NCBI GenBank assembly: GCA_963711135.1 | Contig: CAVQCZ010000005.1 | Location: 163,149 to 227,148 of the forward strand | Source: an uncultured Actinomycetota bacterium | Lineage (GTDB): Bacteria > Actinomycetota > Actinomycetes > Frankiales > Frankiaceae | Length of the DNA stretch: 64,000 nt | Direction: 5' to 3' | Notes under the pieces: model-generated | Told to the model about the DNA's origin: nothing | Database searches by the model: none | Seen by the model: the letters and a program-made list of their open reading frames with translations, nothing else | Program-made: the position numbers and the translations under genes | Shown: positions 38,137-60,398 of the stretch, piece by piece | How positions within the stretch are numbered: the first letter of the stretch is position 1 | Layout of the letters: every line of letters begins with the position of its first letter

Positions 38137-38409
38137 TCACTGACTCGAGACTCGTGCCTGTTCCTGCGCGTTGTTGATCGCCGACTGCCCAAGGCCGCGG
38201 ACGGCTTCTTCCGCGTTGTGCAGTGCAGGCTTGTGTTGGGTGTTCCACCAGTCCGCGAACTGCCGCGCGTCATTGCCCTGCCACACGGACTCCAGCTGGC
38301 GAACGATGCCGTCAACCGCGCTGATGACACCGTTGATGGCGTCTGCCTGGTGCTGCAGCTGGTGACCGAGACCGGTGACGGCCTCAACGTCCATTCCTAC
38401 CTGTGCCAT
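38137..38409 (-). CDS. WXG100-family (ESAT-6-like) protein; the only stand-alone copy in the window
   Basis: The protein is 90 aa: MAQVGMDVEAVTGLGHQLQHQADAINGVISAVDGIVRQLESVWQGNDARQF.... The WxG motif (WQG) lies at the centre of a helix-turn-helix-length protein. Confidence 0.9.
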   Translation of the reverse strand: MAQVGMDVEAVTGLGHQLQHQADAINGVISAVDGIVRQLESVWQGNDARQFADWWNTQHKPALHNAEEAVRGLGQSAINNAQEQARVSSQ

Positions 38410-38460: not shown

Positions 38461-41400
38461 TCATTCGAGGCCGACCGAACTGGCCGCCGTCATCACGATA
38501 GTGATGCGGACATCGTGGGGGAATGGGGAGAACTCCCCGGTTTTACTGCGGATGCCTGGCTCGTAGGCAGCGGAAGCTGGATCGTCGTCGTCGCTCCTCG
38601 GCGAACGAGAAAGCCGCGACCGGCCGGGAAATCGCCCCTTCGGCAGCGTGGGAAATCCGTCCTGAACACCGAGCCGTCGATCTGGTCGGGTTGCAGGCAG
38701 AAGCCGGCTTCGAGCAGACCTGGCCACCGTCAACAGCGGATAGCTGGAGTTGAACGCGCCCACCTCCCCCTCGCACAGCACCAGATGGCCCCGCCGCGCC
38801 GCCGTCTTGATGAGGTTCTGCAACGGCACGTCTGCGGCAGTGTTGAGGAAGTCCGGCAGTCCTTCGATGAAAAGGGTGACCGGTGCCGCTCCCGGCGCGT
38901 CGAGCTGAGGCAAGAGATTCGCGCAGAAGTCGGGGACTTCGTCGGCGCTGTCGATGTTCAGCGTCCAGCGGGCGAGCTCGGACAGGCTCGTCGGCACCGA
39001 ACCGATGCGGTAGGACGCCGTAGCGGGCCGACAGCGAGCGACGGATTCGACAAGCGCGGCAACGGCGCTGGTACGGCCACTTCCGGGAGGGCCGGTCACG
39101 ATGAAGACGCCCTCAGCCGAAAAGCCGACGGGCGCCAGCGTGACCGCAGATATGCCGAGCACGGGCTGTCCCTCGACGGCAAGCGGAAGTTCGCTGAGCT
39201 GGATGTGATCAGTGAGGCGCTGGATGGGCGGGGCGGGAGCCACATCGGCACGCCTCATGGCTGTCGACAGCCGGCGCATCGCTCTGGCTTGCGCATTGGG
39301 GTCCGGGTCGGTACCCAAGATCGCAACCTGCACTTCTGACTCGTCCAGCAAGCCGCGTCCTGGGGGAGAGGACGTCTTCAGCACATCCGATGGCAGGCCC
39401 GCGAGCGCGTAGTCGGCGTCGTCAGCCATCCGCAGTACCAGCCGGCGCTGAAGGCTCGACGCCAGAGCGGTCGGGACGGCGCCTGGCCGGTCGGCGGAGA
39501 GCACGACATGGATTCCTACCGGGCGACCGTCGGAGCAGATGCTGACGAACATGTCGAACAAGCGCGCGCGCTCGCCGGCGTCGTACGCCTGGCGGAACGC
39601 CGGCAGGCCGTCGACCAGGAGCAGTATTCGAGGCTCCTGAGGCTGTTTCGCCCGGGAGCGATAGTCGGTCACCGATCCCGCGTTCGCCGCGGAGTAGAGG
39701 GCGGCGCGCTCGTCCACCAAAGCGCGCAACCATCGCAGCAGGCGGGCGATGCGCTCGTCGTCGTTCCCCGAAATGATGCTGCCGACGTGTGGAAGCTCCT
39801 CGAGGAGAGAAAGGCCCCGGGAGCCGAAGTCGATGCCGTAGACGTGGCAGGGACCGCCGCGAACGGTGAAGCTTGCGGCGATGGCAATGGCCCGCAGCAT
39901 GGTGCTCTTTCCCGACCCACCGGTGCCGTAGACGGCGAGGTTGCCGTCACGGTCCGGGCGGAACGCGACGGTGGGTTGGGATTGGTTTTCCGGATCGTCG
40001 AGGAGGCCGAAGACCAGCTCGTCGTCGCGTCTGCGGGACGGAACCTGGGACTGGTTGGACAGGTCGTAAACCGTGCCGAGCTCGTTGAGCCAGGGCTTGC
40101 GCGGAACCGGTACTTCCGCTGATTCGCTCGCCTGCCTGATCGCACCCACAAGCCGTTGGATGTCGGTGGGGCCGAGGTCGGTGTGTACGGGTGCGCCGGC
40201 CGCGATCTCCCAAACCCGCCCGGAGCCGAACGTCAGCTCCTCGACCAGGATCTCGGGCGGCGGGGGTTCGGCCTTTGTCCAGCCGCCGACGTAGCCGGCT
40301 TGAAACGGCACCAGCCGGCCGGGTCCCGTCTTCGAGACCGAGCGTCCGGGCAGCGACGGGTCAAAGAACGCGGCCTGTGGCGAGCCGAGCACGTCAGTGC
40401 TGTCGTACTCGTCAGCCATGCGGAGCGCCAGGCGCAGGTTGGTGTTCGCCCGCAGCTTGTCCTTGATGACTCCGGCCGGCTGCTGAGTGGCGAGTATCAG
40501 GTGGAGCCCGAGTGAGCGTCCACGCTGGGCCACATTGACCACACCGTCGACGAATTCCGGGACCTCTTGCACCAGAGCTGCGAACTCGTCGACGACGATC
40601 ACCAGGCTGGGAGGCGCGTCGGTCTGGCCGAGCTTCTCCAAGCTCATGAGGTCTTTGGCCCCATGGGTGCTCAGCACCTTCTCGCGGTAGCGAAGTTCGG
40701 CGGAGAGCGAGGTCAGCGCCCGCCGTACCAAGTGGGGGCTCAGGTCGGTAACGAGACCCACGGTGTGGGGGAGTTCCACGCAATCCCGAAACGCCGACCC
40801 ACCCTTGTAATCGACCAGCAGGAAGGTCAACCGCTGCGGACTGTGAGCCGCCGCCATGGCCAGGATCCAGGTTTGCAGGAGCTCGCTCTTGCCTGATCCC
40901 GTCGTCCCGCCGACGAGCGCATGCGGACCGTCAGAGCGCAAATCGAGTGCATGCGGCTCGCCTGCCGCCTGCCCGATGACGGCGCGAAGAGTTCCCGCAT
41001 GGCGCACCGGCTCCGCAGGTGCCATCGGTCCGGTGAGGATGGAACGATTCTCGGTCCAGCGACCGAGCACGGAACCAGCGGTGGCGTCCAGCCGCGAGCC
41101 CGGCAGACCGAGCAGCGAGACGCTGCGGGGAAGGTCGCTGTCGTCGTCGATCCTGGCTCCGGCATCGACGATCGGCGAGAGCATTCGGGCCAGCAAGTTG
41201 GCGTCTGCGGCATCGACGAGATCGGGTGAGACGGGCTCTACAATCTCACCCGACTGGACGTAGCCGATCCGGGTGTTGGCGTTCTGCACGTTGCGGGCAT
41301 CGATGAACGTGCGGCAGGCCGCGGGAAGCAGACCGGGAGTCGGGGCGAGCCACACGACGAAAACCCCGTGCTTCCAACCGGTTTCGGCGAGCTCGACCAG

Positions 41401-42942
41401 GCGACTGTGATCGACCGGAGCATCCGCTTCGATCATTACGAGAGCCGCAGGCAGAAGGTCCGGAGCATCCGAGCCGGCCCGCTGCTGGATCACCGACTCT
41501 ATTTCCGAAATCAGCTTCACCGCATCGGGGGCCGTGCATGCCAGCTGGCGCGCCTCGATGGGGCTGTGCACAGAGGTCGTGTGCGGGAGCCATTTCAGCC
41601 AGTCCCAGTCGGCGGCGGATGCCGAAGACGCGAATCCGGTGATGACCAGCTCCGCGGGGGAGTGCAGGACCGCTGCCTGGCAGAGCACGGAACGTGCAGC
41701 CGCCAGCAAGGCGGGACGCGGTCCGGCTATGCCAAGTGCTCCATCTTCAGCAAGCCGGGCAACCACGGGGACGGAATCGACAAACGAAAACCGCTCGGTT
41801 GCGGCGATGGCTTCGTGCAGCAGCGCACGAGAACCGCGTGTGCCCGCTGGCAGCCGCACAGTGCTGCGCGACGCCTGACGGCCGAGCCCCAAGCGGATCT
41901 CGGCGAAGCCCGGCTCGCCCGGACGACGGGTCCAGAGCAGATCGGCATGGCGTGCGGCGGCGTCCAGGCAATCCCGGGAAGACGGGTGTTCCTGCAGCCG
42001 GGCGGCAACCTCAGCCACGCGCGCCTGCTCGGCTCGGTCGACCGTTTCCGCCAAGTCGGCCCTGAAGGCCTTGACCGCAGCGCGATGACCCGACCGGCCG
42101 GAGAGCCGGGATTCAACCGCGTTTCCGATCAGCATGAGCGGACTCAGTGCGATGAAGATCAGCGACGTTGCCGACTTGGTGATGAGGAAGAGCAGACCGC
42201 CGATCACCAGAGGGGCAATCAGTGGCACGAAGGGGAACCGCGATTGCTTAGGCGGGTCAGGCAGCTCCGGGACGTCGGATTCCAGTCCCTGGAATCGGGG
42301 CTCCAAGCGAGGAGGGCGTATCCAGAGGATGCTGGACTGGTCGCCGTCGGTGGCCGTGCGGGGCGCAGGTGCGGCCTTCAGCATCAGCTCCGAGTCGCCG
42401 GCAAGGACCCGATCTCCCACCCGGAGAACACACCGGGAGATGCTGTCCCCTCCGACCGATAGGCCGTTCGCAGAGCCGAGATCCGCGATCTCGACGTCGT
42501 TGGTGACGTTGAGCCGAGCATGCTGACGCGAGACAAGTGGATCGTTCAGCGTCACCTCGCAGTTGGGGTCTCGTCCGATGAGGCTGCTGCCGCGGGCAAG
42601 CCGGAATTCCTTGCCGGTGTCCGGTCCAGCCGTTACCGCAAGCACCGCGACCCCTACCGCTTCCGGGTCTTGGTAGCGGTTCCCCTCGCGGCTGAGCGTG
42701 ACCGTAGCGCCCGAGCGCAGTCCGCTTTCGCCGAGCGGAAGCCGGGGATCAAGCGCCCGGGTGTCGCGGCTCACGACCGCGAGGGTCGCCCGTTCGTCGC
42801 GGATGAGGCTGCTGCCGGTGTCTGCAGTGTCGGCGGTGCTCAGGAACCTCGCGAGGTCGCCGACTGTGGCTCGGGCATCGGCCGTCACGAGGAGATCGAC
42901 GGTGCTCCCGCCGGAGCGCTGAAGCGTGAATTTGAGTTTCAC
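38461..42942 (-). CDS. eccC: T7SS FtsK/SpoIIIE-family ATPase (EssC/EccC-like) with N-terminal ubiquitin-like and FHA domains; 3' end apparently frameshifted
   Basis: Three P-loops are present: GGTTGSGKSE, GTGGSGKST and GPPGSGRTS. The N-terminus (KFTLQRSGGSTVDLLVTADARATVGDLARFL...GLRSGATVTL) looks YukD/Ubl-like. The FHA domain reads LIGRDPNCEVTLNDPLVSRQHARL...GSANGLSVGG. Two TM helices follow. After about 38710, the family-typical tail (AGFCLQPDQIDGSVFRTDFPRCRRGDFPAGRGFLVRRGATTTIQL) lies in the +1 frame. The corrected stop would then be at 38493-38495. Confidence 0.85.
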   Translation of the reverse strand: MKLKFTLQRSGGSTVDLLVTADARATVGDLARFLSTADTADTGSSLIRDERATLAVVSRDTRALDPRLPLGESGLRSGATVTLSREGNRYQDPEAVGVAVLAVTAGPDTGKEFRLARGSSLIGRDPNCEVTLNDPLVSRQHARLNVTNDVEIADLGSANGLSVGGDSISRCVLRVGDRVLAGDSELMLKAAPAPRTATDGDQSSILWIRPPRLEPRFQGLESDVPELPDPPKQSRFPFVPLIAPLVIGGLLFLITKSATSLIFIALSPLMLIGNAVESRLSGRSGHRAAVKAFRADLAETVDRAEQARVAEVAARLQEHPSSRDCLDAAARHADLLWTRRPGEPGFAEIRLGLGRQASRSTVRLPAGTRGSRALLHEAIAATERFSFVDSVPVVARLAEDGALGIAGPRPALLAAARSVLCQAAVLHSPAELVITGFASSASAADWDWLKWLPHTTSVHSPIEARQLACTAPDAVKLISEIESVIQQRAGSDAPDLLPAALVMIEADAPVDHSRLVELAETGWKHGVFVVWLAPTPGLLPAACRTFIDARNVQNANTRIGYVQSGEIVEPVSPDLVDAADANLLARMLSPIVDAGARIDDDSDLPRSVSLLGLPGSRLDATAGSVLGRWTENRSILTGPMAPAEPVRHAGTLRAVIGQAAGEPHALDLRSDGPHALVGGTTGSGKSELLQTWILAMAAAHSPQRLTFLLVDYKGGSAFRDCVELPHTVGLVTDLSPHLVRRALTSLSAELRYREKVLSTHGAKDLMSLEKLGQTDAPPSLVIVVDEFAALVQEVPEFVDGVVNVAQRGRSLGLHLILATQQPAGVIKDKLRANTNLRLALRMADEYDSTDVLGSPQAAFFDPSLPGRSVSKTGPGRLVPFQAGYVGGWTKAEPPPPEILVEELTFGSGRVWEIAAGAPVHTDLGPTDIQRLVGAIRQASESAEVPVPRKPWLNELGTVYDLSNQSQVPSRRRDDELVFGLLDDPENQSQPTVAFRPDRDGNLAVYGTGGSGKSTMLRAIAIAASFTVRGGPCHVYGIDFGSRGLSLLEELPHVGSIISGNDDERIARLLRWLRALVDERAALYSAANAGSVTDYRSRAKQPQEPRILLLVDGLPAFRQAYDAGERARLFDMFVSICSDGRPVGIHVVLSADRPGAVPTALASSLQRRLVLRMADDADYALAGLPSDVLKTSSPPGRGLLDESEVQVAILGTDPDPNAQARAMRRLSTAMRRADVAPAPPIQRLTDHIQLSELPLAVEGQPVLGISAVTLAPVGFSAEGVFIVTGPPGSGRTSAVAALVESVARCRPATASYRIGSVPTSLSELARWTLNIDSADEVPDFCANLLPQLDAPGAAPVTLFIEGLPDFLNTAADVPLQNLIKTAARRGHLVLCEGEVGAFNSSYPLLTVARSARSRLLPATRPDRRLGVQDGFPTLPKGRFPGRSRLSRSPRSDDDDPASAAYEPGIRSKTGEFSPFPHDVRITIVMTAASSVGLE
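38525..38538 (-). promoter_or_regulatory. Palindrome GGGGAG-TT-CTCCCC (read on the minus strand), copy 1 of 3
   Basis: The plus strand reads GAATGGGGAGAACTCCCCGG. It lies about 115 nt upstream of the WXG100 start, inside the 3' end of the ATPase gene. Confidence 0.5.
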
Positions 42943-45281
42943 GACGGAGTGTCCGTGAGTGAGGCCGCCGTCAGGTTAGGCGGAAGCAGGGATCGCAAGC
43001 TGAGGGCGGTGCGGATCCGTTGCCGGCGGCTGAGCGAATCTGTCATGGTGCGTCGAGTCTTGTCGACCATGCTCCAGTACTCAGCAGCCGCTTCCGGTGA
43101 CAGCGCATCCGGACCGAAAATGCGCGCGTCCGCGGCGATCGCCAGCGGGCGGACATCGTGCTCACCGATCGCCGAGGCCTGCTCGCGCCGGGTCCGCCCA
43201 CTGGGAACGGCGAAGCCAAGGTCGCGCGCCAGGTCCACAATCTCGTGCCAGCCCCGTGCGATGCGCGTTTGGGCGGTGCCCCGCTGACGTCGTCGTGACC
43301 GTCGCCGCGCCTTCGTGCCGACGACCACACCGACGAAAAGCAATACGGCGAGGATCGGAGGGCCGCCCCACTGAGCAGCAGTCACAAGGAAATGCGGAAT
43401 ACGAAACCCGGCGCCGGCTTGCTTCTTGTGATTGGGGCTGGAGTGCAGCGAGCTGGTGTCGGCCGTTGCGGCGGTGTCGAGGGTGCTCGGCGGCCGCGTT
43501 GGATTCGGCGGTGGCACGATCGAGGCGGTCGCGTCAGACACCTTCTGCGGAGGCTGTTTCGTCGGCTTCTTCGACTGCGGGGGCATGAACTTCGTCTGGG
43601 GCACCGCAACCCACCTGCCGTCACCAAGGTGCATCTCGACCCAAGCGTGGACGTCACGACCTTTGATCACGCCGTTGGCCTCGGGAGTGGCTCCGAGTAC
43701 GACCCGGGTCGGCATCCCGAGATCGTTGGCCAGCAGCGCGAACGCGGCCGCGTACTGCTCGTCGTCGCCGACAATCTGCGTCGAGTTCAGAAAGGACGTG
43801 AGGCGCCCTACGCTGTGTCCGGGCAGGTACTGGCCTTCGCCCTTCCCGCCATCGCTGTAGAAACCCGCAGTGTGCAAGTGCGTTGCCACCGCCTGCACTT
43901 CAGCCCAGACGTCACCGGTCTTCCCGGCCCATTGCGCGGCGCGATTGGCGACGAAACTGGTAACCGACGACTGGAGGGCTGGTTGGCCGTACGGGCGCAA
44001 TTGCTGCGGCGCCTTGGTATCCAGCACCGTGTGCAGCGTGTACGTGTCGCCGGCCTTGAGCTGATCCGTGACCACTCCAGCGGAAGTCGCGAGGTTGTAG
44101 CGGAAGCTGGCGGCATGGCTGGTGCTGTCTGCGCCGGAGAAGCTCACGGAACGCAGGCTGCCCGCCTCCGGAACCCAGGCGTTGGCGTCAGAGATGGCCG
44201 CATACCCCGGCGCGATGGTGATTTCTACTGCCGTCGATGGGCCATTCGACTCCGCGGGTATCCGGGTGCCGACCTTCTGGAAAGAGTCTTCAGGCTCGTT
44301 GGAGCTGACCAGGCTTCCTGAGCTGGCACCCCAGACCGAGCCGTTGTAGCTGTCGAGTACGGCGAAGCGTAGGGGCTGCCCTGCGGGTAGGCCGTGCACC
44401 GTCAGAAGTTGCTGGTCGTAGAGCAGCTTGGCGTCTTTCGTGTACTTGCGGAAGCCGACCAGTGGGCTCGCGTAGGTGCTCAAGTCCAGCGGAGGCTGAA
44501 CATAAGCCCGCACCACAACCCGTTTGTGGGTCGACACTCCAGGCAGATGCGGCCCCACAAAGGCCGCGAGCGGCGCGGTTATGGCCAGCAGCGCGACAGC
44601 CGTCACGGCGCGGCTGCGCTGCCGGCTTCCGTTCTGCACCAGCGGATTGATGCGCTGAGACCGGACAGCCGCCCACCCGATCGCAACGGCAGCGAAGCCC
44701 AAACCCTGAACCCAGCGCGCGGCGGGCTGGGCCGTCCCGAGCAGGATCACGACCGATAGGAGCGCGATCGGTGCGAGCAGCGGCGTGACGGCGTTGCGCA
44801 ACCGCCGGGCCATCGTCATGCCGATGGCTCCGCAGGCGAGACCGAGCAGGTACGGCAGGACGAGCAGCGGCCCGCTCCCGTCGACCGGAGGCAACGTGGT
44901 CACCAGCTGCTTCCAGCCGTTGACACTCACCGACGCCAAATGCTTTACGGCACTCGCAGTGGGAAGCACCCCGATGGCGGTCTGGGTCCGCAGCGCGATG
45001 GCGCCTCCGAGCAAGAAGAACGTCAGAACGGTGACGACGGCAATGGCGATGATCGGCTGCCGGAGCACGTTGGCGAAATGGCCGATGAGCAGACCTAAGA
45101 CGAGTCCAGCCACGCCGACGAGAAGGTAGGACTGGCCGGTGTACGTCGTACGGAAGCCCAGCAGGGCAACGACCGACAGGACTGCCAGAAAGCCGGCGTC
45201 CTGCGCGTCGGCACGCGTGACCCGCCAGTGAATGCGACGGACCTCGCGACCGGCACCGGGCGAAAAAACAGCGCTACTCAT
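42939..45281 (-). CDS. Polytopic transglutaminase-like membrane protein (TgpA-like)
   Basis: About six N-terminal TM helices are visible. The core reads QIVGDDEQYAAAFALLANDLGMPTRVVLG...DVHAWVEMHLGDGRWVAV. A late TM segment and a basic tail follow. Start and stop overlap the neighbouring genes (GTGA at 42939-42942, ATGA at 45278-45281). Confidence 0.75.
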   Translation of the reverse strand: MSSAVFSPGAGREVRRIHWRVTRADAQDAGFLAVLSVVALLGFRTTYTGQSYLLVGVAGLVLGLLIGHFANVLRQPIIAIAVVTVLTFFLLGGAIALRTQTAIGVLPTASAVKHLASVSVNGWKQLVTTLPPVDGSGPLLVLPYLLGLACGAIGMTMARRLRNAVTPLLAPIALLSVVILLGTAQPAARWVQGLGFAAVAIGWAAVRSQRINPLVQNGSRQRSRAVTAVALLAITAPLAAFVGPHLPGVSTHKRVVVRAYVQPPLDLSTYASPLVGFRKYTKDAKLLYDQQLLTVHGLPAGQPLRFAVLDSYNGSVWGASSGSLVSSNEPEDSFQKVGTRIPAESNGPSTAVEITIAPGYAAISDANAWVPEAGSLRSVSFSGADSTSHAASFRYNLATSAGVVTDQLKAGDTYTLHTVLDTKAPQQLRPYGQPALQSSVTSFVANRAAQWAGKTGDVWAEVQAVATHLHTAGFYSDGGKGEGQYLPGHSVGRLTSFLNSTQIVGDDEQYAAAFALLANDLGMPTRVVLGATPEANGVIKGRDVHAWVEMHLGDGRWVAVPQTKFMPPQSKKPTKQPPQKVSDATASIVPPPNPTRPPSTLDTAATADTSSLHSSPNHKKQAGAGFRIPHFLVTAAQWGGPPILAVLLFVGVVVGTKARRRSRRRQRGTAQTRIARGWHEIVDLARDLGFAVPSGRTRREQASAIGEHDVRPLAIAADARIFGPDALSPEAAAEYWSMVDKTRRTMTDSLSRRQRIRTALSLRSLLPPNLTAASLTDTPS

Positions 45282-46612
45282 TGAAGACCTATTCCGCGAA
45301 GAAGGCGGGGAAGGTCAGTCAGCCCGGGTAGGGAGAGCACTGTCACGCTGTTGCTCTCCGCGATGTCGACCCGATTGCTGGGATCGACGCGGATGACGAC
45401 CTTGCGGGTCTCAGGGGCAAAACGCGAGGCGGCCACCCTCAGATCGATGAAGGCGGGCAGCGGGCCCGTCACGATGAACGCCAAACTGGTGTCAGGGGCT
45501 TTGCGCACGGCGTCGCCCGCTTGGTGCAGGAGCGGCGGCTGGCCCAAGCCGGCACGGCTGAAGGCGTCGAGTGTCAGGTGTGCCGGCTTGCGGTCCGCGA
45601 ACTGACCGCCAGTGAGGACGGTCGTCTCCATCTCATCCAAGATGGCCCGTACCGCAAGGGAAGCTCCGACTTGCAAGGCGACCTCGAACGTCTCGGGATC
45701 GTCGTAACTGCCGGCGTGCCCGTCGACCAGGACGAGCAGCTGGGACCGGCGCGTGTCGAGGAACTGGCGCACGAGAAAGGGTGCCTGCGGGTTAGCTCCC
45801 ATCGCCTTGGCGGACGAGCGCCAATGAATGAACCGCCGATCGTCCCCGGGGGCGAATTCCCGCAGCGCGTTGAACGCGAGGTCGCTCATCGACAGGTCTG
45901 TGGTGGGTTGGCCCTCGAGATCGCGCAGGAGCCCCGAGCCGAGCGATGGGACTGAGATCGTCTTGGGGTGCACGAACAGCTCCGTCATCTCCGTCCACGG
46001 AACAGCGCGGCGCAGCAACCCGAAAGGATCCCCACGAACGGTGGTTGCCGGGCCGATCGGGATCACCCCGCGGGCGTCGGTCGGCACGACAAAGAGCTCC
46101 TCGTGTGCGACGCCCGGGCGCAGGCTGGGAAGCGAAAACCGCGCCTTGGAGGTCGCGATCGGGAGCTCCAAGGCAAGCGAGAAGAGCCGCGCACGCGAAA
46201 CGTTCGTCACGCTGACTTGACCAGCCGCCGGGGCGCCGACGACGACCCGGCGCGGGTGTACCTCGACCGAAACGCGAAGCGTGGTGCGGCCGATCGTGAG
46301 GGCGATCGCCAGCACGATGACGATGAGGCAGAAGGCTGCGATGAGAGCGAGTTCGATCCAGTGCAGCCGCGAGCTGAGAATCCACAGGATGACGGCAGCG
46401 ACCAAGACGGTCCATCCGAGCGGAGTGACGACGCTCGTGACGGGCCGGGACAGCCGGACGGCCAGCCGTCCGCGCGCCCGTGTCCGCTGCAGGAACGGGG
46501 CGGCAGCACTTCGCAGCGCCGTCGCTTTCGCAACCGCTTGGCCCGCAGGGCCGCTCAACGTCTTCGGCATGTGACTCTTAGGCCGCCCGTTCCGCCGGCG
46601 GAACAACCTCAT
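45278..46612 (-). CDS. DUF58-family protein (partner of MoxR ATPases)
   Basis: Two N-terminal TM helices are present. The motif NALREFAPGDDRRFIHWRSSAKAM matches the remembered DUF58 signature (REY.PGD..R.I.WK.SAR). The start could be the ATG at 46570. Confidence 0.8.
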   Translation of the reverse strand: MRLFRRRNGRPKSHMPKTLSGPAGQAVAKATALRSAAAPFLQRTRARGRLAVRLSRPVTSVVTPLGWTVLVAAVILWILSSRLHWIELALIAAFCLIVIVLAIALTIGRTTLRVSVEVHPRRVVVGAPAAGQVSVTNVSRARLFSLALELPIATSKARFSLPSLRPGVAHEELFVVPTDARGVIPIGPATTVRGDPFGLLRRAVPWTEMTELFVHPKTISVPSLGSGLLRDLEGQPTTDLSMSDLAFNALREFAPGDDRRFIHWRSSAKAMGANPQAPFLVRQFLDTRRSQLLVLVDGHAGSYDDPETFEVALQVGASLAVRAILDEMETTVLTGGQFADRKPAHLTLDAFSRAGLGQPPLLHQAGDAVRKAPDTSLAFIVTGPLPAFIDLRVAASRFAPETRKVVIRVDPSNRVDIAESNSVTVLSLPGLTDLPRLLRGIGLQ

Positions 46613-47553: not shown

Positions 47554-47560
47554 ATTCCAC

Positions 47561-53500: not shown

Positions 53501-53833
53501 GTTGTCTCGCGCGATCACGGCTGCACCGTCTTGCGACACGTCAAGCGTGGAGGTTTCGCGCGCACCGCCGGGCGGGTTGAACGCCCCGTCGAGCGCGCCC
53601 GCCGGTTTGTTCACACGTCCGAAAAGGTCTTGAGCGTTGTTCGTGACCCAGATCCCGCCGTCGTGGAGATTCACGTGTTGAACGGGGTATCCGTTCGACG
53701 TCAGGGCGAACGCCACGAGGGTGGAAGCCCCCACTGCCAGAGCCGCAGTTGACGCAAGCGCCGTCTGATGGCGCTTCAGAAACCCCAATGCATCCCCCGG
53801 AACATCTAACCTGAAAAAAACAGGTACGGCCAA
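47561..53833 (-). CDS. Giant (2090 aa) membrane-anchored surface protein with a propeller-like N-domain, many cadherin/Ig-like domains, FN3 domains and a Trp/Tyr-rich C-terminal domain
   Basis: The N-terminal TM segment is [20 protein letters not shown]. Cadherin-like signatures recur ([61 protein letters not shown]). FN3 units are visible ([23 protein letters not shown]..., [22 protein letters not shown]...). The TTG start at 53833 is uncertain. The stop is 7 nt before the moxR start. Confidence 0.85.
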
Positions 53834-53887
53834 CTGGTGACTCGTCGTCCTTTTGGCAGCGTGTCAGTTGCCGCTCCAGTCGGCGAT

Positions 53888-53901
53888 GGGGAGAACTCCC
53901 C
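53888..53901 (-). promoter_or_regulatory. Palindrome GGGGAG-TT-CTCCCC (read on the minus strand), copy 2 of 3
   Basis: The plus strand reads GCGATGGGGAGAACTCCCCGCC. It lies about 55 nt upstream of the annotated start of the giant gene, in the 116-nt gap after the FHA-like/HTH gene. Confidence 0.5.
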
Positions 53902-53949
53902 GCCTGTAAAGAGAATTGCGAGGCGACGACCGTGCTACGCGTTCGCCAA

Positions 53950-54669
53950 TCATGGGGCCTCCGTCCGGTCGAGGAGGCTCAGATCGTCACGATGCACGAG
54001 CCGGGTAGCGAGTGCGAACTCCACCAACCTGGCGCGACGATTGACGGCCAGGCGCTCCGGTCCTCCGTGTAGCCCCCGGACCCCGACTTGAGTCAGTCGC
54101 TGGCAGACGTTGTCCAGCTTGCGGTTGAACTTGGTGATCGGCCATCCGAGACGCGCGGCTGCTTCGGCGGATGTCGGCACCGTGGATGCCCCGCGCTCGC
54201 CGCGCCTCAGGGGCTGCTCGCACAAGGCGATGACAAGGAGTCTCTGGTCCGGCGTCAAGGAAACCGGCCCGACGGTCGTGATTCCGGTGTCACTCTGCTC
54301 GGCGAGCGCAGGGGTGTACGGCGCGGCCTCGAGCTGCACCTCGAACTCGTAGGTCGTGGGACCTGCGGTGAACCAGACAATGTTTCGGCTGAAGACCAGC
54401 GGAAGTCTCGCGCCCGGGGCCAGCCAAGCCTGCATCGTGCCGTGCTCGTCGGCGATGGTGGCGGTGAGCTGGGTGCCGAGATTGCTGAGCACCCACAGCG
54501 AGTCCTGGTCGGCAAGCTGCAGGAACTTGCGATGCAGGTAGGGGTTGTCGTCCACCGTGAGGTCGCCGTCCCTACCGATGGTGAAAGGCCGCGACGGGAC
54601 GACGACGTATCTCTCACCGCAGAAATCGATCGTTGCAGCGGGCAGAGCCGCGGCGGAGACGGGCATCAT
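53950..54669 (-). CDS. Degenerate-FHA-like domain plus C-terminal HTH protein (candidate locus regulator)
   Basis: The start is ATGATG at 54669, forming an ATGA overlap with the kinase stop. The N-domain reads RPFTIGRDGDLTVDDNPYLHRKFLQL...LWVLSNLG. The C-terminal part is HTH-like (LTPDQRLLVIALCEQPLRRG...TSAEAAARLGWPITKFNRKLDNVCQRL). It is a paralog of 62555..63244. Confidence 0.65.
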   Translation of the reverse strand: MMPVSAAALPAATIDFCGERYVVVPSRPFTIGRDGDLTVDDNPYLHRKFLQLADQDSLWVLSNLGTQLTATIADEHGTMQAWLAPGARLPLVFSRNIVWFTAGPTTYEFEVQLEAAPYTPALAEQSDTGITTVGPVSLTPDQRLLVIALCEQPLRRGERGASTVPTSAEAAARLGWPITKFNRKLDNVCQRLTQVGVRGLHGGPERLAVNRRARLVEFALATRLVHRDDLSLLDRTEAP

Positions 54670-56288
54670 GGGCTGCACTTCGCGGCCGACCAATCGACAG
54701 CAGCATTGCTGCCGTCCGCACGCATCACTTTGATCTGCAGGCAGACAGGCGTCCCCGCGGGGGCGGACAGCGTCAGTGAGTTGTGTTGCGTGACACCGTG
54801 ACGAGCATTGTCGGAGGTTCTCCACCTGAAGGTGTCGCTGGCCAATGAGGCGTCGTAGGTCCAGCCGAACTGGACTGCGCCAGCGCTTGTCCGGGTGGCT
54901 GTGATCTGCGGTGTGCCAGGCGGAATCGCTTCTCCCGCAATGCCGGCGTCCTGCGGGGGCGTCGTCTGCGAGGTGCTCGCTAGCGCGTGAGCCTTGGGCT
55001 TGCTCCCGGATGACAGTGCTACTCCGACGGCGATGCTCGTCGCGATCACGACGGCAGCGGCTGCTACGACGAGGTAGCGTCGCGCGCCCCGGTGGGTTTC
55101 TCCGGCTGCCTCGGCTACTACGCCGCCCTGAGGTATTTCGGGCGACACCGGCTTGCGGATGGTTGACGGCAGCTCTCGCTTGTGTGCTGCGGCGCGGTCG
55201 ACCGATCGCGCCGCCGAGCCAGCCGAAGTCGCCTCGGCCGCCGGGGAAGGAGCTCGACCATCGGGAGCTTTCGGTGGCGGCGGTTGGACGAACTGCCGCC
55301 TCGAGCCCGGTGGGCTGGGCGGGGGAACGAGGGGTACGCGCTGCGGGGTTCGGACTGAGGTCGGCGCCTCTTCCCCGCCCCCGATTACGCGGCGAACAGC
55401 TTGCGTCTGCTCCTCTGCCAGGACCACGATGTCAGTGCGCGGAAGGCGAAGCTCCTGCTCGACCGCGAGGAGGGACCGAGCTAAGGCAATCGCGGACTCC
55501 GGCCGAGCGCTTGGATCCTTCGCCATGGCCTGCTGAAGAAGCCGCTCAAACGTGGTGGGGACTTCGGCGCGGCCGGTTGGGGGCGGCGGGGTGTCCCTGA
55601 TCCTGCGCATGAGCGCGTAGGCCTTGTTGTCCCCGCGGGGGACCTCGAACGGAGAACGCCCGACGAGCAAGTGCCACAGCGTTGCGCCGAGCGAGTAGAC
55701 GTCGGAGCGGACGCTCGCCGATGCCGTGCCGTAAAGGACCTCGGGCGGTGCCCAGGGAACTGAGACGCCGCCGTCCTCCTCTTCCGCCTCAGCGGAGGCG
55801 AGTTGAGCAGCGATACCGAAATCGGTAAGCCCAGGCGCCCCGTACTGGCTGGTGAGAATGTTCGCCGGCTTGATGTCCCGGTGCAAGATGCCCGCCCTGT
55901 GGGCGGTTTCCACCGCGCTGGCGATCTGTATGCCGATGCGGATGACCTCGGCGACAGGCAGTCCACCTTGCGCCGCCCGCACACTCAGGTTCGGGCGCGA
56001 GTAGTAGCTCATGAGCAGGAATGGACGGCCATCGTCGGTTTCGCCGGCAGAGAAGACCGGGACGATGTTGGGATGGTCGGCCAACGCGGCCATCGCGTTT
56101 GCTTCGGCTACGAATTGCCGACGAACCCCATCATCGAGATTGCCGACGCGGAGCACCTTGACGGCGACCTTGCGTCGCGGCATCTCTTGCTCGTACAGGT
56201 AAACATCGCTGTATCCCCCAGAGCCGAGTGGTTCGAGGTAGCTCAGACCAGAGATCTCCGGAATCGCTTCGGACAACGGCCGTTTCAC
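54666..56288 (-). CDS. Single-pass receptor Ser/Thr protein kinase with a small beta-rich ectodomain
   Basis: Kinase motifs are present (GSGGYSDVYL, VAVKVL, HRDIKPANIL, DFGIAA, PWAPPE). The TM segment is YLVVAAAAVVIATSIAVGVAL. The GTG start overlaps the upstream stop (GTGA). Confidence 0.85.
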   Translation of the reverse strand: MKRPLSEAIPEISGLSYLEPLGSGGYSDVYLYEQEMPRRKVAVKVLRVGNLDDGVRRQFVAEANAMAALADHPNIVPVFSAGETDDGRPFLLMSYYSRPNLSVRAAQGGLPVAEVIRIGIQIASAVETAHRAGILHRDIKPANILTSQYGAPGLTDFGIAAQLASAEAEEEDGGVSVPWAPPEVLYGTASASVRSDVYSLGATLWHLLVGRSPFEVPRGDNKAYALMRRIRDTPPPPTGRAEVPTTFERLLQQAMAKDPSARPESAIALARSLLAVEQELRLPRTDIVVLAEEQTQAVRRVIGGGEEAPTSVRTPQRVPLVPPPSPPGSRRQFVQPPPPKAPDGRAPSPAAEATSAGSAARSVDRAAAHKRELPSTIRKPVSPEIPQGGVVAEAAGETHRGARRYLVVAAAAVVIATSIAVGVALSSGSKPKAHALASTSQTTPPQDAGIAGEAIPPGTPQITATRTSAGAVQFGWTYDASLASDTFRWRTSDNARHGVTQHNSLTLSAPAGTPVCLQIKVMRADGSNAAVDWSAAKCSP

Positions 56289-57931
56289 GCTTCCACCTCG
56301 AAGGTGAAGGTGACGTCATCTGTCAACGCCACCACAGTTCCCGGCTCGATCAGCTGTGGATCGCGGGGGCGCAACTGTGTGGGTGGTTGACCGGGAAGCG
56401 TGACGACAGTGCCATTGGTCGACTCGAGATCCTCGACAAAGACCAGCCATCCGTCCAGGAGAACCTGAGCGTGTGTGCGCGAGATGTCCTTGTCGCGGCT
56501 GGGCAACTGCATCACGTGCGGCCGATCTCGTCCCTCTTCCGCGGGCGCTTGAGGGGCTCTCCCCATGAGAACGCCCTTGTCGAGTGACACGACGTCGCCG
56601 GTGCTGAACCTCAGTACACCGAGTGCGGGTCGCGGGACCCTCGTGGGTTCCTGGGTCGGCATGGTCTGTCGGCATACTCGACAATTGCCGGCGTGGGCTG
56701 GGCTCAGGTGTCCTGCCGGGCAGCGGGCAGCCAAGACGATCGGGCCCACTTCTTGCACGCCCGTGGGCGCTTGCGCTGCCAGGAGCTGAGCTCGACTGAT
56801 GGTGTTCTCGCTGAGCTCTTCGCCGATGTCTTCCGGATCGAAATTCAAGGTCGGTCGGGCGGCCGCCGGGACCGCTGGCTCGGCGACGGGGGAGGCGGCT
56901 TGCGGCGGAGCGGGAGCTGGAGATGACTGACGCTTCCAGGGCAGTTCGTCGATGAGATCGGAGCTGTCGTCGGTCTGTGGAAGCAGGGTGTCGTCAGGAA
57001 GGAGAGTCGAGTAGGAGTCCGCTCTCGGCGCCTGCGTTGGAAGCCGGGTCATCGGGTGAGGTTCAGCCTCGCCGGGCGATGTGGCAGGACCCGCTACGGG
57101 GGTCGGCTCGTCGTCGCCCCGCTCCGTCACCGGGCCTTGCGTGGCGCCGAAGAGATGGTCGTAGTCGTCGGCAAGTGCATCTTCCGACTCTTCCGCGGCC
57201 AGCGGATCGTCAGCCTGGGCGAGCGGCTCCTGCGGCGTTTCGGGTGCTGGCGGCGTTTCGGGAAGGGACGGGGTTTCGGGTGCGGGCGGCGTTTCGGGCA
57301 GGGGCGGCGTTTCGGGTGCGGGCGGTAGCGGCGACGGTGCCGCGAGATCGAAGAAGTTTCCGCCGTCGCTTCGGCTCGGCGGAGCGAAGTGGACGTCCAC
57401 TGTCTCTCGTCCGGGTTTCGAAGCGTCGCTCGGCTGAGCGGGAATGCTCAACCGTCCGGCCAGGACGACACCGCTGCGCAGCGGCAATTCGACGTCTTCC
57501 TGGTCCTGGCTCCCCTGGACAAGGGACAAGGCTCCCGCCGAAGCGGGAGCCACATGTTCGCGCCAGGTTGGGGCGTACTCCGAGGTCATCTCAAAGTTGG
57601 CACCGCCTGGCTGGGTCCAGATACCGCGCGACTGACCGCGCAGGATCACCCTGAGCACACCTTCCCGGACGCTGGCCAGGGCGAAGTCGCTGACAACCCG
57701 GAAGCCGGCCTCCAGGATGGCGCCGAGGATCTCGTCGGGGTCGGCGTCTCTTCGTATGAGTCCCCAGCAGGCGAGGACAACCTCATGATTCGCAGGAATT
57801 TCCGCCAACAGCCAGGTTCGCTCTCCGGCGAGGCAGACGAAGGGGCCGGGTACGTAGGTGATTTCAGCAAGCGGCGACTGAACCAACTCAATCGCTCCCG
57901 ATGCGGCGCAACCGCGGGGCCGTGGTTTCAT
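56285..57931 (-). CDS. FHA-domain protein with an unknown N-domain, a PETPP-repeat linker and a zinc-ribbon-like motif
   Basis: The C-terminal FHA domain reads GVLMGRAPQ...SRDKDISRTHAQVLLDGWLVFVEDLESTNGTVV. The motif CPAGHLSPAHAGNCRVC precedes it. I start the gene at the ATG at 57931; a TTG at 57886 is the alternative. The track ORF from 58072 overlaps the PP2C gene. Confidence 0.75.
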   Translation of the reverse strand: MKPRPRGCAASGAIELVQSPLAEITYVPGPFVCLAGERTWLLAEIPANHEVVLACWGLIRRDADPDEILGAILEAGFRVVSDFALASVREGVLRVILRGQSRGIWTQPGGANFEMTSEYAPTWREHVAPASAGALSLVQGSQDQEDVELPLRSGVVLAGRLSIPAQPSDASKPGRETVDVHFAPPSRSDGGNFFDLAAPSPLPPAPETPPLPETPPAPETPSLPETPPAPETPQEPLAQADDPLAAEESEDALADDYDHLFGATQGPVTERGDDEPTPVAGPATSPGEAEPHPMTRLPTQAPRADSYSTLLPDDTLLPQTDDSSDLIDELPWKRQSSPAPAPPQAASPVAEPAVPAAARPTLNFDPEDIGEELSENTISRAQLLAAQAPTGVQEVGPIVLAARCPAGHLSPAHAGNCRVCRQTMPTQEPTRVPRPALGVLRFSTGDVVSLDKGVLMGRAPQAPAEEGRDRPHVMQLPSRDKDISRTHAQVLLDGWLVFVEDLESTNGTVVTLPGQPPTQLRPRDPQLIEPGTVVALTDDVTFTFEVEA

Positions 57932-58673
57932 CGACCGGCTCTGGAGCGAGGCCGGGTGAATGGTCGACAACGATGACCGAGACGTTGTCCCGCCCACCAG
58001 CGGCGAGGGCGCGGCGAACGAGTGCCTCGGCAGCGTCGTGTGGGGTGGCTTCCGTCGCAAGCACGAAATCAATGGTCGAGTCGGGCACCTCGTTCGTCAG
58101 CCCGTCTGAACAGATGAGGAAGCGCTCCCCGTCCTCAGGCGGGAAAACCCAGAGATCCGGACTGGGCGACGGGAGACTTCCCAAGCAGCGCGTCACGACG
58201 TTCCGGCGGGGATGCACGCGGGCGTCGGCTGGGCTGAGTGCTCCAGACGCGACCATCTCTTCCACCTCGGAATGATCGACCGTCAACTGTTGCAATGCGC
58301 CATGTGCGTAGCGGTAAACGCGTGAGTCTCCGATGTTGAAAACGAGCCAGTGAGCACCACCAGACAGCTGGACCACGGCCAGGCCGGCGACTGTCGTCCC
58401 CATCCCGATTCGGCTGGACTCCGTCGCCGCGTTAGCGAGAATGGTGTCATTCGCGAGCGACAGGGCGCCCATGATCTGCTCCGACGTAAGCGATTCGACA
58501 TCGGCCAGCCGGCCCAGCACCTCGACCGCGATCGAGCTCGCAACGTCGCCGGCCGCGTGACCGCCCATCCCGTCAGCCACCGCGCACAGTGTCGACGAAG
58601 TCAGCACGGCGTCTTCGTTGACCTCTCTCAGAACCCCGACGTTGGTCACCGCGGACGCCAGGACCGTCAACAT
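57888..58673 (-). CDS. PP2C-family (PPM) Ser/Thr phosphatase
   Basis: The motifs REVNEDA, ADGMGGHAAGDVAS, ICSDGLTN and GGRDNVSVIVVD are present. Confidence 0.9.
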   Translation of the reverse strand: MLTVLASAVTNVGVLREVNEDAVLTSSTLCAVADGMGGHAAGDVASSIAVEVLGRLADVESLTSEQIMGALSLANDTILANAATESSRIGMGTTVAGLAVVQLSGGAHWLVFNIGDSRVYRYAHGALQQLTVDHSEVEEMVASGALSPADARVHPRRNVVTRCLGSLPSPSPDLWVFPPEDGERFLICSDGLTNEVPDSTIDFVLATEATPHDAAEALVRRALAAGGRDNVSVIVVDHSPGLAPEPVDETTAPRLRRIGSD

Positions 58674-58839
58674 GGAACGGCTCCTGCCAGCGCTTGAGAT
58701 TTGACAGCCTTCCGTTGAGCATTCGAAATTGCAGCCGACCCGTCAGGCAGAGAAGGCAAAAGCAGACTGAATCCTAGCGGCACGGCCCGGCCGGCGGACC
58801 GGGATGACAAATATGTATATGCGATTTGAGTTGACGCCA

Positions 58840-60030
58840 TTAGGACCCGGTCTGACTCAGCCATGACGGGCTTCGCCCAAAGAATGTCACGGCTTCACGG
58901 TTGAGCCAAAGCGTCGCCACGATCGTGATGTCCAACCCGATGCCGATGAAGAATCCGAGGGAATGCGCGCCACCGATCAGCTGAAGGACGATGGTGATGA
59001 GGCTGACGGCTGCTGCAACGATCGGTGCGCTGTGCTCGGCGTCGCCCACCAGCTTGTAGGAGACCACGAAGCCCACCGCAAGCAGCAGCATGAACAGCCC
59101 GACGACGTAGTACTTGCCGTCGAACTTGCCGAGCAGGAGATACAGGAGAGCGATCAGACCGACAAGACCGCCGTTCACGGCGAGCAGGACCTGAGCGATG
59201 ACCACCGGTGCGGGACGATCGCCGTCACGCGTCCTGGATTGAGCGAAGTGGTCACGCACACTCTGCGGGAGCCATAGCAGGGCGCAGGCAATCGCCGAGC
59301 CGAGAAGGATCACAGCCCGCCACGACCCACTGCCACTTCCGCCACTGGTCGTGTCGGCACCGGAGCCCGAGAGGGCGCCGATGACCAGGGCGAGGGCGAG
59401 CGCCACGGCCAGACCCCGACCAACCCGATCTGCCTTGAACAGGAGGTAGGCAACCGCCAGGCACGCCGCGCCGAACGCTGCGATGATCAGCAGAAGGAGA
59501 AGCAGCACCCAAGCAAGTTGACCGAAATACGGGCTGCCGAGCGCCTTCGCGATATCGGGGAGGGGGCGCAATCCCTCGAACAGCGTGTAGACGCCCATGG
59601 TGACAAGGGCCCCGATCACGATGAGCAGCTCGTTGGGAACCATGGCTAGGAGCCGCGGCGCTGCGGGTCTCGAAGGCAGGGGGGGTGCTGGTGACGTGAG
59701 GGGCGCCGCAGCGGGTGCGGCCGGCTCCCCGCCGAGTGTTGCGGGCGATCCGAAGCTCGCCGTCGGAGGCGGCACAGGCGCTGCGACAGCGGCGGGCACG
59801 ATCGGACGGGAGATCGGGCGGAGGGTCGTTCTTTCGACGTCGGGATCCAGGCGGTCGTCAGGTGCGTTATCAAGGTGTGGTGCGCTGCCGGCCGGGCGAT
59901 AGGCCGGCAGCTCAGCGGCCGGCCCTTCCTCGATGCTCTGCCACGAGTACCCGCAGTGGGCGCACTGAGGCACCCTGACATGGACCCGTTGCCCGCACAT
60001 CGGACACTCGGGTGCGACCTCGTCCCCCAC
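58840..60030 (-). CDS. N-terminal zinc-ribbon, Pro-rich linker and polytopic membrane protein; first gene of the minus-strand cluster
   Basis: The zinc-ribbon motif is CPMCGQRVHVRVPQCAHCG. About seven hydrophobic helices follow. Confidence 0.7.
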   Translation of the reverse strand: MGDEVAPECPMCGQRVHVRVPQCAHCGYSWQSIEEGPAAELPAYRPAGSAPHLDNAPDDRLDPDVERTTLRPISRPIVPAAVAAPVPPPTASFGSPATLGGEPAAPAAAPLTSPAPPLPSRPAAPRLLAMVPNELLIVIGALVTMGVYTLFEGLRPLPDIAKALGSPYFGQLAWVLLLLLLIIAAFGAACLAVAYLLFKADRVGRGLAVALALALVIGALSGSGADTTSGGSGSGSWRAVILLGSAIACALLWLPQSVRDHFAQSRTRDGDRPAPVVIAQVLLAVNGGLVGLIALLYLLLGKFDGKYYVVGLFMLLLAVGFVVSYKLVGDAEHSAPIVAAAVSLITIVLQLIGGAHSLGFFIGIGLDITIVATLWLNREAVTFFGRSPSWLSQTGS

Positions 60031-60244
60031 GACTACCTACCCTTTTTTCTGCTAATGGGCGGTCATAAAACAGTTGCCGACCGCATGACACTGTCTCGCA
60101 TCGGGTGGTGCTTTGTGGCCCGTTGTCGAGATTTTCTGCGTGATCTTGGGCGGCTGGAGTCGGGAAAGGCGCTACCCCCTGCTCGGCGAATCCGACCTGC
60201 CCCAGCTCAGCGCGAGGCTAAATCGTTGCCGTTCAGTTGAGAAT

Positions 60245-60258
60245 GGGGAGTTCTCCCC
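60245..60258 (+). promoter_or_regulatory. Palindrome GGGGAG-TT-CTCCCC, copy 3 of 3
   Basis: The plus strand reads GAATGGGGAGTTCTCCCCAAG. It lies in the divergent intergenic region, 140 nt upstream of the WXG-CHAP start (60399) and 215 nt from the cluster start (60030). Confidence 0.5.
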
Positions 60259-60398
60259 AAGCTGAATCGCTCGATCAGCGCTGCTTCTTGGGCTGCTGCG
60301 CCCTAGCATTGGCTCCGCCGCCTCTCGGGATGGCGGATCTCGGCGACGTTCAGCTACCGATGCTGCGCGCCGACTTGGACTCGATGGGAGGACGGCAA

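Follow-up and report, generated by a model that had tools for sequence, protein, structure and literature searches.

A conserved palindrome at the predicted promoters of an actinobacterial Esr-Esx locus: a probable activator site and a candidate FHA/GerE-like binder

The Esr (epibiont sensing and response) pathway is linked to Esx, and with the combined Esr-Esx system actinobacteria defend themselves against parasitic Patescibacteria (Wang et al., bioRxiv 9 September 2026, PMC13622651). The named components are EsrA (a giant secreted filamentous Ig-repeat sensor with a terminal beta-propeller), a MoxR protein, a vWA protein, the transglutaminase EsrD, the kinase EsrE, the phosphatase EsrF and the FHA output protein EsrG. 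Infection of Schaalia odontolytica with a saccharibacterium leads to transcriptional induction of Esx and surface-remodelling genes, and this induction runs via EsrA1-dependent, kinase-dependent phosphorylation of a threonine in EsrG1 (PMC13622651). The same authors leave undetermined how EsrG phosphorylation alters transcription, and suggest that Zn-finger-containing EsrG variants might act on nucleic acids. Described here is a palindrome, GGGGAGTTCTCCCC, that occurs three times in a 64-kb stretch of DNA from an uncultured Frankiaceae bacterium (hereafter the window), each time next to genes of such a system. The best overall explanation of this element is probably that it is the binding site of a dimeric activator, likely the FHA/GerE-like protein encoded at 53950-54669.

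A second described module, the PFNA operon of bifidobacteria, comprises pkb2, fn3, aaa-atp, duf58 and tgm, with or without prpC and fha (PMC8430577). Gene functions in the window were assigned by Pfam searches of the cluster genes and of the larger open reading frames (ORFs) elsewhere. The window locus shares with the PFNA operon the module of kinase, FN3-Ig protein, MoxR, DUF58, transglutaminase, PP2C and FHA proteins, but no Esx linkage is described for the latter (PMC8430577). The resemblance to Esr-Esx is closer: the set and order of giant Ig-repeat, MoxR, vWA/DUF58, transglutaminase, kinase, PP2C and FHA proteins are the same, and the module adjoins EccC/EssC and WXG100 genes, as it does in the window. 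Judged from its gene content, the window locus is an Esr-Esx system. As far as the available text of the Esr-Esx paper goes, it describes no cis-element, promoter motif, helix-turn-helix (HTH) or DNA-binding protein, and the FHA/HTH protein considered here is not among its named EsrA-G components (PMC13622651). The PFNA review makes no mention of a promoter, palindrome or operator (PMC8430577), and neither the motif strings nor related regulators could be traced in the literature searched.

GGGGAGTTCTCCCC has exactly three exact matches in the window, at 38525-38538 (-), 53888-53901 (-) and 60245-60258 (+), and none of 100 dinucleotide-preserving shuffles contains any match. When two mismatches are tolerated, the extra hits are at chance level and lie within coding sequence, and a position weight matrix (PWM) derived from the sites in orthologues scores nothing else in the 64 kb at 12 bits or more. 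An earlier note on this DNA had reported three copies only, each preceded by AT on the plus strand. Both statements hold, and the AT is part of a conserved extended motif (CTCCCC-AT when read on the minus strand). Copy 1 (38523-38540, minus strand; CC-GGGGAG-TT-CTCCCC-AT; PWM score 26.9 bits) is 116 nt from the ATG of the WXG100 gene (38409), in agreement with the approximately 115 nt given previously, but its position falls within the essC ORF, in the 3' tail (codons 1469-1473 of 1493). The window EssC is homologous to orthologous EssC proteins only as far as residue 1415-1451, and the tail beyond is unconserved. Copy 2 (53886-53903, minus strand; GC-GGGGAG-TT-CTCCCC-AT; 26.8 bits) sits between the stop codon of the FHA/HTH gene and the giant esrA-like gene. 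Its previously stated distance of about 55 nt is correct for the longest-ORF start, whereas the likelier start is a TTG at 53788, approximately 100 nt away, which has a Shine-Dalgarno sequence and at which the conserved N-terminus begins. Copy 3 (60243-60260, both strands; 24.0 bits on the plus and 23.3 bits on the minus strand) is located, as the note had it, in a divergent intergenic region, 141 nt upstream of the start of the WXG-CHAP gene (60399). This copy also lies within a longer imperfect inverted repeat (TTCAGTT ... AGCTGAA, 60230-60272); the plus-strand RNA fold of 60230-60272 has a z-score of -2.8, which is not seen at the other two copies.

To place these copies in a wider context, 80 loci (L001-L080, 1.48 Mb) were fetched from species-representative genomes with an alignment of the 239-amino acid (aa) regulator encoded at 53950-54669. 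The sampled taxa include Jatrophihabitans, Knoellia, Terrabacter, Phycicoccus, Micropruina, Propioniciclava, Agromyces, Paenarthrobacter, Georgenia, Ruania and Ilumatobacteraceae. The common gene order in L001-L080 is PP2C, FHA protein, kinase, 239-aa protein, the block of giant protein, MoxR, DUF58 and transglutaminase, then EssC and WXG100; the order of the PP2C-to-regulator genes is also kept in a close relative of the window (L204). In the 1.48 Mb there are 43 exact matches to GGGGAG-NN-CTCCCC, and 72 matches when up to one mismatch is allowed, compared with 0-1 exact matches for each of 23 composition-matched control palindromes. The motif is thus not absent from orthologous loci, and it stands at the same three junctions as in the window: 64 of the 72 sites are found there, with 34 before the PP2C operon, 25 between the regulator and giant genes and five after EssC. 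Sites of at least 12 bits are present at 35/66 pre-PP2C junctions, 28/47 regulator/giant-gene junctions and 5/12 post-EssC junctions; L204 also has a site at the regulator/giant-gene junction. Motif positions are conserved across families that include Intrasporangiaceae, Propionibacteriaceae, Microbacteriaceae and Ruaniaceae, as well as in Jatrophihabitans and Ilumatobacteraceae.

The post-EssC sites (in L020, L027, L063 and L079 among the loci) are promoter-like and upstream of a WXG100 gene in four of five cases; the fifth (L063, 16026) is inside the downstream WXG gene and is not promoter-like. The seven EssC junctions that have no site all belong to the Paenarthrobacter/Arthrobacter group (L058, L060, L068, L069, L071, L074 and L075), and tblastn finds no WXG100 gene after EssC in these seven loci. 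In the three of them that were read directly (L058, L060 and L071), the next gene after EssC encodes a proline-rich secreted-type protein. Symmetric dyad variants are seen at the expected promoter position in a few loci (GGGCAG..CTGCCC, GGTGAG..CTCACC and GGGGAC..GTCCCC; L009 5510, L025 10974, L066 10808 and L055 15228), in which the putative recognition helix of the regulator is unchanged. A Nocardioides metagenome-assembled genome (L042, 11249-11293) carries GGGGAGAACTCCCC and GGGGAGTTCTCCCC, both exact and 17 nt apart, in an AT-rich stretch approximately 600 nt downstream of the regulator gene.

Base frequencies at 53 sites give the consensus (a)T-GGGGAG-T-n-CTCCCC-A-T. The extended site is an 18-bp near-palindrome with the form of a 7-2-7 inverted repeat (7-bp arms, 2-bp spacer), and its downstream AT is better conserved than the mirror-image upstream bases. 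A second asymmetry lies at the centre, where position 7 is T in 42/53 sites, toward a -10 element at fixed distance, and position 8 has no mirror of it. The central TT had been said to read toward the downstream gene at every copy. This is so under the gene assignment made at the time, but in the orthologues it is the T at position 7 that is directional, and copy 3 reads AA toward its -10. The fixed distance itself is evident from the 72 sites: on the gene strand a TAnnnT hexamer starts 24 nt after the motif in 20 cases, 25 nt in 15, 34 nt in 14 and 54 nt in two, and on the opposite strand no TAnnnT is found at the same offsets. The expectation estimated from base composition is about 0.3 matches per offset. 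The hexamers seen are TAGGCT, TACGCT, TAGTTT, TACCCT and similar sequences. Given this combination of symmetry, conservation and spacing, the motif is, with high confidence, a real and conserved protein-binding dyad embedded in promoters.

When the transcription start site (TSS) is assumed to lie 7 nt after the -10 hexamer, the centre of the dyad falls near -43.5, -53.5 or -73.5 relative to the predicted TSS, on the same helical face throughout. In the CRP/FNR paradigm, class II sites overlap or abut the -35 element and class I sites lie helical turns further upstream. By analogy, the 24-25 nt spacing would be class II-like, abutting or overlapping the -35 region, and the longer spacings would be class I-like. 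An activator fits better than an operator because of these three centre positions and because no -35 hexamer is present, and the dyad is accordingly a likely activator site. The earlier suggestion of an operator for a dimeric regulator therefore survives in part: a dyad is indeed present at three transcription units and is conserved, enriched and phased, but its geometry favours activation. The -35 element of an extracytoplasmic function (ECF) sigma factor was also considered as the identity of the motif. ECF promoters combine a GGAAC-type -35 and a CGTC-type -10 at a rigid 16-17 nt; the -10 here is a housekeeping TAnnnT, the spacing differs by 10 and 30 bp, and both dyad arms are conserved, an anatomy that does not suit the -35 element of an alternative sigma factor.

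Sigma-70 consensus scans around the three copies find no promoter, and no -35-like hexamer is evident. The predicted promoters lack a -35 hexamer, and their -10 boxes become visible only through the comparative spacing. At copy 1 the predicted -10 is TATCGT (38495-38500, minus strand), 24 nt downstream of the motif (sequence and PWM/-10 scan), with a predicted TSS near 38488 that would give a 5' untranslated region of approximately 79 nt for the WXG100 gene. The whole of this predicted promoter (motif, -10 and TSS) is contained within the last 25 or so codons of essC (38461-38540), and the relative L202 (15131-15176) repeats the overlap with an identical TATCGT at 24 nt. At copy 2 the PWM/-10 scan finds no TAnnnT within 60 nt, and an imperfect -10-like CACGCT (53858-53863, minus strand), in which A2 and T6 are kept and the first T is lost, lies 24 nt downstream.

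Copy 3 appears to serve two directions. On the minus strand, a predicted -10 (TAGCCT, 60215-60220) lies 24 nt away and faces the Zn-ribbon/PP2C/FHA/kinase/regulator genes, which are predicted to form one operon served by this copy. Upstream of the PP2C operon, 34 orthologous loci have the same geometry. On the plus strand, a predicted -10 (TAGCAT, 60304-60309) lies 45 nt away and faces the divergent WXG-CHAP effector gene. Two close relatives (L202/L203 and L204/L205), whose regulators are 83% identical to that of the window, allow both to be compared. Toward the esr operon, TAnnnT at 24 nt is kept in L202/L203 (TAACGT in L202). Toward the WXG effector gene, L202/L203 retain TAGCAT at 45 nt and L204/L205 at 44 nt, although the intergenic DNA has otherwise diverged; when the region is aligned with L202 and L204, the motif is the sole long invariant block. 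The canonical 24-nt spacing points to the minus-strand esr operon as the chief target of copy 3. The WXG-CHAP gene, to which the note had assigned this copy, is thus not the primary target, but it is probably also driven by the site, through the TAGCAT 44-45 nt away. The effector encoded there keeps a WXG100-like N-terminus among the relatives (L204 1272-2249 (-); L203 469-1347 (-)), while the C-terminus varies: the window and L203 have a CHAP domain there and L204 has an unrelated one, a pattern that resembles polymorphic toxins.

The candidate binder is the 239-aa FHA/HTH protein encoded on the minus strand at 53950-54669. It has thousands of homologues across the Actinomycetes at more than 55-60% identity, and its closest named relatives are from Jatrophihabitans spp. 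(at most 70% identity). In an AlphaFold2 model of the protein (predicted local distance difference test score 83.6), the N-terminal part (residues ~10-115) is predicted to adopt an FHA fold, and a linker joins it to an HTH at the C-terminus. For the N-terminal domain, Foldseek gives FHA-1 of Rv1747 as the top match (6ccd, E-value: 4.1e-6) and also retrieves 1uht, GarA, OdhI and EmbR (2ff4, 2fez). The C-terminal domain, modelled separately, superposes best on the DNA-binding domains of LiaR, VraR, GerE, NarL (bound to DNA) and DosR, with template modelling scores by target of 0.75-0.82, a root mean square deviation (rmsd) of 1.9-2.5 A and probabilities up to 0.98, though with non-significant E-values. 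Our reading of the alignment is that the sequence fits the GerE-type pattern LT..Q..L...L / S...A..LG....T....R.L..V..KL; conserved GR and DDNPYLHR motifs, which bear on the FHA domain, are also visible. The putative recognition helix, T[KR]FNRKLDNVC, is invariant in 80/80 loci. Because this includes the loci that have no site, co-variation of helix and motif is uninformative. The regulator gene lies within the copy 3 operon and directly upstream of copy 2, an arrangement that implies positive autoregulation. Taken together, these features make the protein a somewhat favoured candidate for the binder.

Two paralogous FHA/HTH proteins had been put forward as candidates. The one at 53950-54669 remains credible, with its FHA fold, GerE-like domain and invariant helix. 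The other, encoded at 62555-63244, is only marginally similar to the first by BLASTP, differs from it in the putative recognition helix and gives no tblastn hit in L001-L080, and was set aside. The Zn-ribbon protein of the window likewise has no tblastn hit in L001-L080; a Zn-ribbon gene does stand at that position in L204/L205. Among the Pfam-tested ORFs of the window there is no GerE protein, and the FHA/HTH protein at 53950-54669 is the sole locus-encoded putative DNA-binding protein that is conserved together with the motif.

A number of observations weigh against an activator site read by the FHA/GerE-like protein, and they are set out here together with the alternative explanations. The palindrome could in principle act as a nucleic-acid structure, whether an RNA hairpin (terminator, attenuator or processing site) or a repeat of the REP (repetitive extragenic palindromic) or MITE (miniature inverted-repeat transposable element) type. 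Copies 1 and 2 are indeed at or past the preceding gene's 3' end, copy 1 is picked out on the plus strand by a terminator scan, and a few orthologues have symmetric changes in both arms. The hairpin would consist of only 5 bp and a tetraloop, however, and at copies 1 and 2 it is no more stable than in shuffled sequences (z = -0.8 and -1.1); there is no U-tract on the gene strand of the kind that an intrinsic terminator has, and Rfam 15 gives no match at gathering score in the window. Single-arm mismatches are common and uncompensated, the sequence of the arms is itself conserved across families, which structure alone does not need, and the sites before the first operon have no co-directional gene upstream. 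A strict one-sided distance to the -10 is a property of promoters, and an element with only three copies in 64 kb, all at promoters, and with 64/72 sites in 1.48 Mb at three junctions does not behave as a dispersed repeat. Structure is thus a very improbable explanation. A repressor operator, by which a protein would occupy the -35 region and keep the esx/esr promoters off until signalling releases it, has more in its favour and is still improbable. The system is inducible (PMC13622651), and sites of the 24-25 nt class span about -50 to -37, with the AT reaching approximately -35, from where a bound protein could occlude the -35 region. Occlusion has no need of helical phasing, yet the additional 10 and 30 bp keep the site on one helical face, as is typical of activators that contact RNA polymerase, and sites at -53.5 or -73.5 overlap no core promoter element. 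The lack of a -35-like hexamer between site and -10 suggests activator-dependent promoters, and the shared divergent site, at 24 nt from one -10 and at 44-45 nt from the other, likewise speaks against an operator.

The site may also be a genuine promoter-proximal element with a different binder, which is unlikely; this could be a global regulator encoded elsewhere, one of the GerE/LuxR type or an EsrG variant with a Zn finger, and the FHA/HTH protein would then have another role. The co-occurrence of regulator and motif arises partly by construction, since the loci were collected with the regulator as bait. In 24/80 loci the regulator has the same helix, yet there is no site of at least 12 bits within 10 kb; these loci include the Paenarthrobacter/Arthrobacter group and all three Actinomycetaceae loci. 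The regulator gives no Pfam hit (neither GerE nor, at an E-value of at most 0.01, FHA), a PDB sequence search with its profile returns no true match (spurious GAPDH only), and the Foldseek E-values of the C-terminal domain are non-significant (at least 0.65), so the HTH assignment rests on weak fold scores. In two loci (L105 and L107) the motif is directly followed by a GerE-family gene, and the possible action of Zn-finger EsrG variants on nucleic acids has been raised (PMC13622651). Two further points weigh against the main reading. No Schaalia/Actinomyces orthologue of the regulator is present among the best 120 hits of an Actinomycetaceae query, which leaves a link from motif and regulator to the published Schaalia experiments tentative, and the copy 2 promoter, with its imperfect -10 only, is the weakest of the predicted set. 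In favour of the FHA/HTH protein over another binder, neither the Zn-ribbon protein nor the second FHA/HTH protein is found in L001-L080, the window offers no GerE protein among the ORFs tested, no other putative DNA-binding protein of the locus is conserved with the motif, and the putative recognition helix is as invariant as the motif itself.

The mechanism proposed for an activator of the FHA/GerE-like type is as follows. A dimeric activator would bind the extended palindrome T-GGGGAG-(T/n)n-CTCCCC-A(T) within Esr-Esx promoters, with the GerE/LuxR-like HTH of the 53950-54669 protein reading the two half-sites of a specific target such as ATGGGGAGTNCTCCCCAT. Through its FHA domain, the protein would make DNA binding or the recruitment of RNA polymerase depend on threonine phosphorylation by the kinase/phosphatase pair encoded next to it, possibly by docking on the phosphorylated EsrG-like FHA protein. 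Copy 1 would then drive the WXG100 gene, copy 2 would drive the operon of giant sensor, MoxR, vWA and transglutaminase genes, and copy 3 would serve both strands, with the phosphatase/FHA/kinase/regulator operon as its minus-strand target and the divergent WXG-CHAP effector gene as its plus-strand target. The expected outcome is positive autoregulation together with induction of Esx substrates. A broader proposal is that the FHA-GerE-like protein family is the missing transcriptional output of Esr, reading the kinase-dependent phosphothreonine (on EsrG, on itself or on the kinase), binding the 7-2-7 palindrome at about -43.5, recruiting RNA polymerase and switching on the esr operons, as a positive feedback, and a dispersed regulon of genes for WXG100 proteins and polymorphic WXG-toxin effectors. 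This proposal is finely balanced and is put forward tentatively.

The genes on which this mechanism would act are arranged as follows, all on the minus strand unless stated otherwise. The WXG100 gene (esxA/B-like; 38137-38409; Pfam WXG100 E-value: 2.3e-6), the predicted target of the copy 1 promoter, follows the gene for an EssC/EccC-type FtsK/SpoIIIE ATPase with an N-terminal FHA domain (38461-42942; Pfam FtsK_SpoIIIE, FHA and Yop-YscD_cpl). Further upstream are genes for an EsrD-like transglutaminase (42939-45281; Transglut_core/TgpA_N), a DUF58/vWA-type protein (45278-46612; DUF58, a weak match with an E-value of 3.7e-4) and a MoxR AAA+ ATPase (46643-47560; AAA_3). The giant secreted EsrA-like Ig-repeat protein (47561-53788; 2,075 aa) has nine Big_9 domains as well as Cadherin_5, Cadherin_4 and fn3, and its N-terminus is signal-peptide-like; no beta-propeller was detected in it by Pfam. 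Beyond the regulator gene lie those for a Ser/Thr kinase of the EsrE type (54666-56288; Pkinase), a 595-aa EsrG-like protein with a C-terminal FHA domain (56285-58072; FHA at residues 514-581), a PP2C phosphatase of the EsrF type (57888-58673; PP2C_2) and the Zn-ribbon protein (58840-60030; identified by Pfam). The divergent WXG-CHAP effector gene (60399-61271, plus strand; CHAP and WXG100) is followed on the plus strand by genes for a YbjN-like protein and for the second FHA-like/HTH-like protein (62555-63244).

Some further genes of the window have features in common with this cluster. A 253-aa ORF on the plus strand (36629-37390) cross-hits, in tblastn searches, the same WXG100 genes as the WXG100 and WXG-CHAP proteins do, and probably encodes a WXG-like N-terminus. 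It begins 16 nt past a gene for a kinase/periplasmic-binding protein (34040-36613) and lacks its own copy of the motif. Several large secreted-type proteins with beta-propeller and Ig, FG-GAP and CHAP, GDSL lipase and RCC1, or CHAP domains (2968-5712, 6434-8893, 22542-24962 and 28192-29862) and further Ser/Thr kinases (30062-32890 and 34040-36613) are encoded in the left half of the window. No copy of the motif was found upstream of these left-half secreted-type or kinase genes.

A scan of metagenome contigs with the pattern GGGGAGTNCTCCCCAT-N22-23-TANNNT (motif, AT and -10) yielded at least 120 loci with motif and -10. Among the matches listed, many are directly after EssC, before WXG100, before the PP2C operon or after the gene for the 239-aa protein, and the first ORF typically starts 25-70 nt after the -10. 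According to an iterative local hidden Markov model (HMM), the first downstream ORF is WXG100-like in 52/109 of the listed matches, and many of these ORFs encode effector-like proteins of 200-560 aa with a WXG N-terminus. When ten members of the HMM set were sampled, seven had Pfam WXG100 at an E-value of at most 0.01, four of them above Pfam's own cutoff. Among the listed matches that are not HMM members, Pfam finds weak WXG100 and T7SS_signal domains and one GerE regulator. In several long contigs the motif-promoter has no esr/esx gene nearby, which suggests a dispersed regulon. In L105 and L107 the motif-promoter after the FHA/HTH gene precedes a small GerE/LuxR regulator (Pfam GerE E-value: 5e-8) instead of the giant gene; this protein could be a second-tier regulator or an alternative binder. 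In L090, L132, L176, L187, L188 and L201, a gene for a small conserved protein (MSTLAYPS..FPGQPSV..VPEGWEP), for which there is no Pfam hit, comes first between the motif and the PP2C gene.

Activator sites as such are familiar, but this element is a new regulon signature for the recently described Esr-Esx system. With a precise cis-element and a specific candidate regulator in hand, the question of how Esr signalling reaches transcription becomes directly testable. About half of the genes directly downstream of the motif and -10, among the matches listed, encode WXG100 proteins or effectors with a WXG N-terminus, many of them too divergent for Pfam, and the motif pattern could help to identify Esx substrates and toxins and to map out the Esr regulon, whichever actinobacterial genome is examined. 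If the proposed binder is correct, the fusion of an FHA domain and a GerE-like HTH in one protein would give bacteria an unusual route from Ser/Thr kinase signalling to transcription. The family would then constitute a new class of one-component activators controlled by Ser/Thr phosphorylation, with a sequence signature that predicts Esx effectors across the Actinomycetes.

Three known systems resemble the proposed one in part. EmbR of Mycobacterium tuberculosis is, like the candidate, a regulator that carries an FHA domain on a single polypeptide and is tied to Ser/Thr kinase signalling. The architecture differs: in EmbR a SARP/OmpR-type winged helix is N-terminal, there is a bacterial transcriptional activation domain, and the FHA domain is C-terminal, whereas the candidate has an N-terminal FHA domain and a GerE-like DNA-binding domain, with no sequence kinship to EmbR beyond the FHA fold. 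The DNA site has a counterpart among NarL/GerE-family regulators. The sites of NarL-type proteins are 7-2-7 inverted repeats, and that of DosR is a G-rich GGGAC dyad; the palindrome described here likewise has two 7-bp arms with a 2-bp spacer and G-rich, GGGxC-type half-sites like those of the DosR box. The modelled C-terminal domain of the candidate superposes on structures of this family (1je8 and 1zlj) at approximately 2 A rmsd, but the candidate has an FHA input in place of a receiver domain and an insertion between the first two helices. Finally, the predicted promoters can be compared with class I and class II activator-dependent promoters. Here the centre is at about -43.5 (relative to the predicted TSS) rather than -41.5, the protein family is another and the site is shorter (18 bp). 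Common to both are a palindrome just upstream of -35 or an integral number of turns further away, a housekeeping-type -10 and the use of a single site by divergent promoters.

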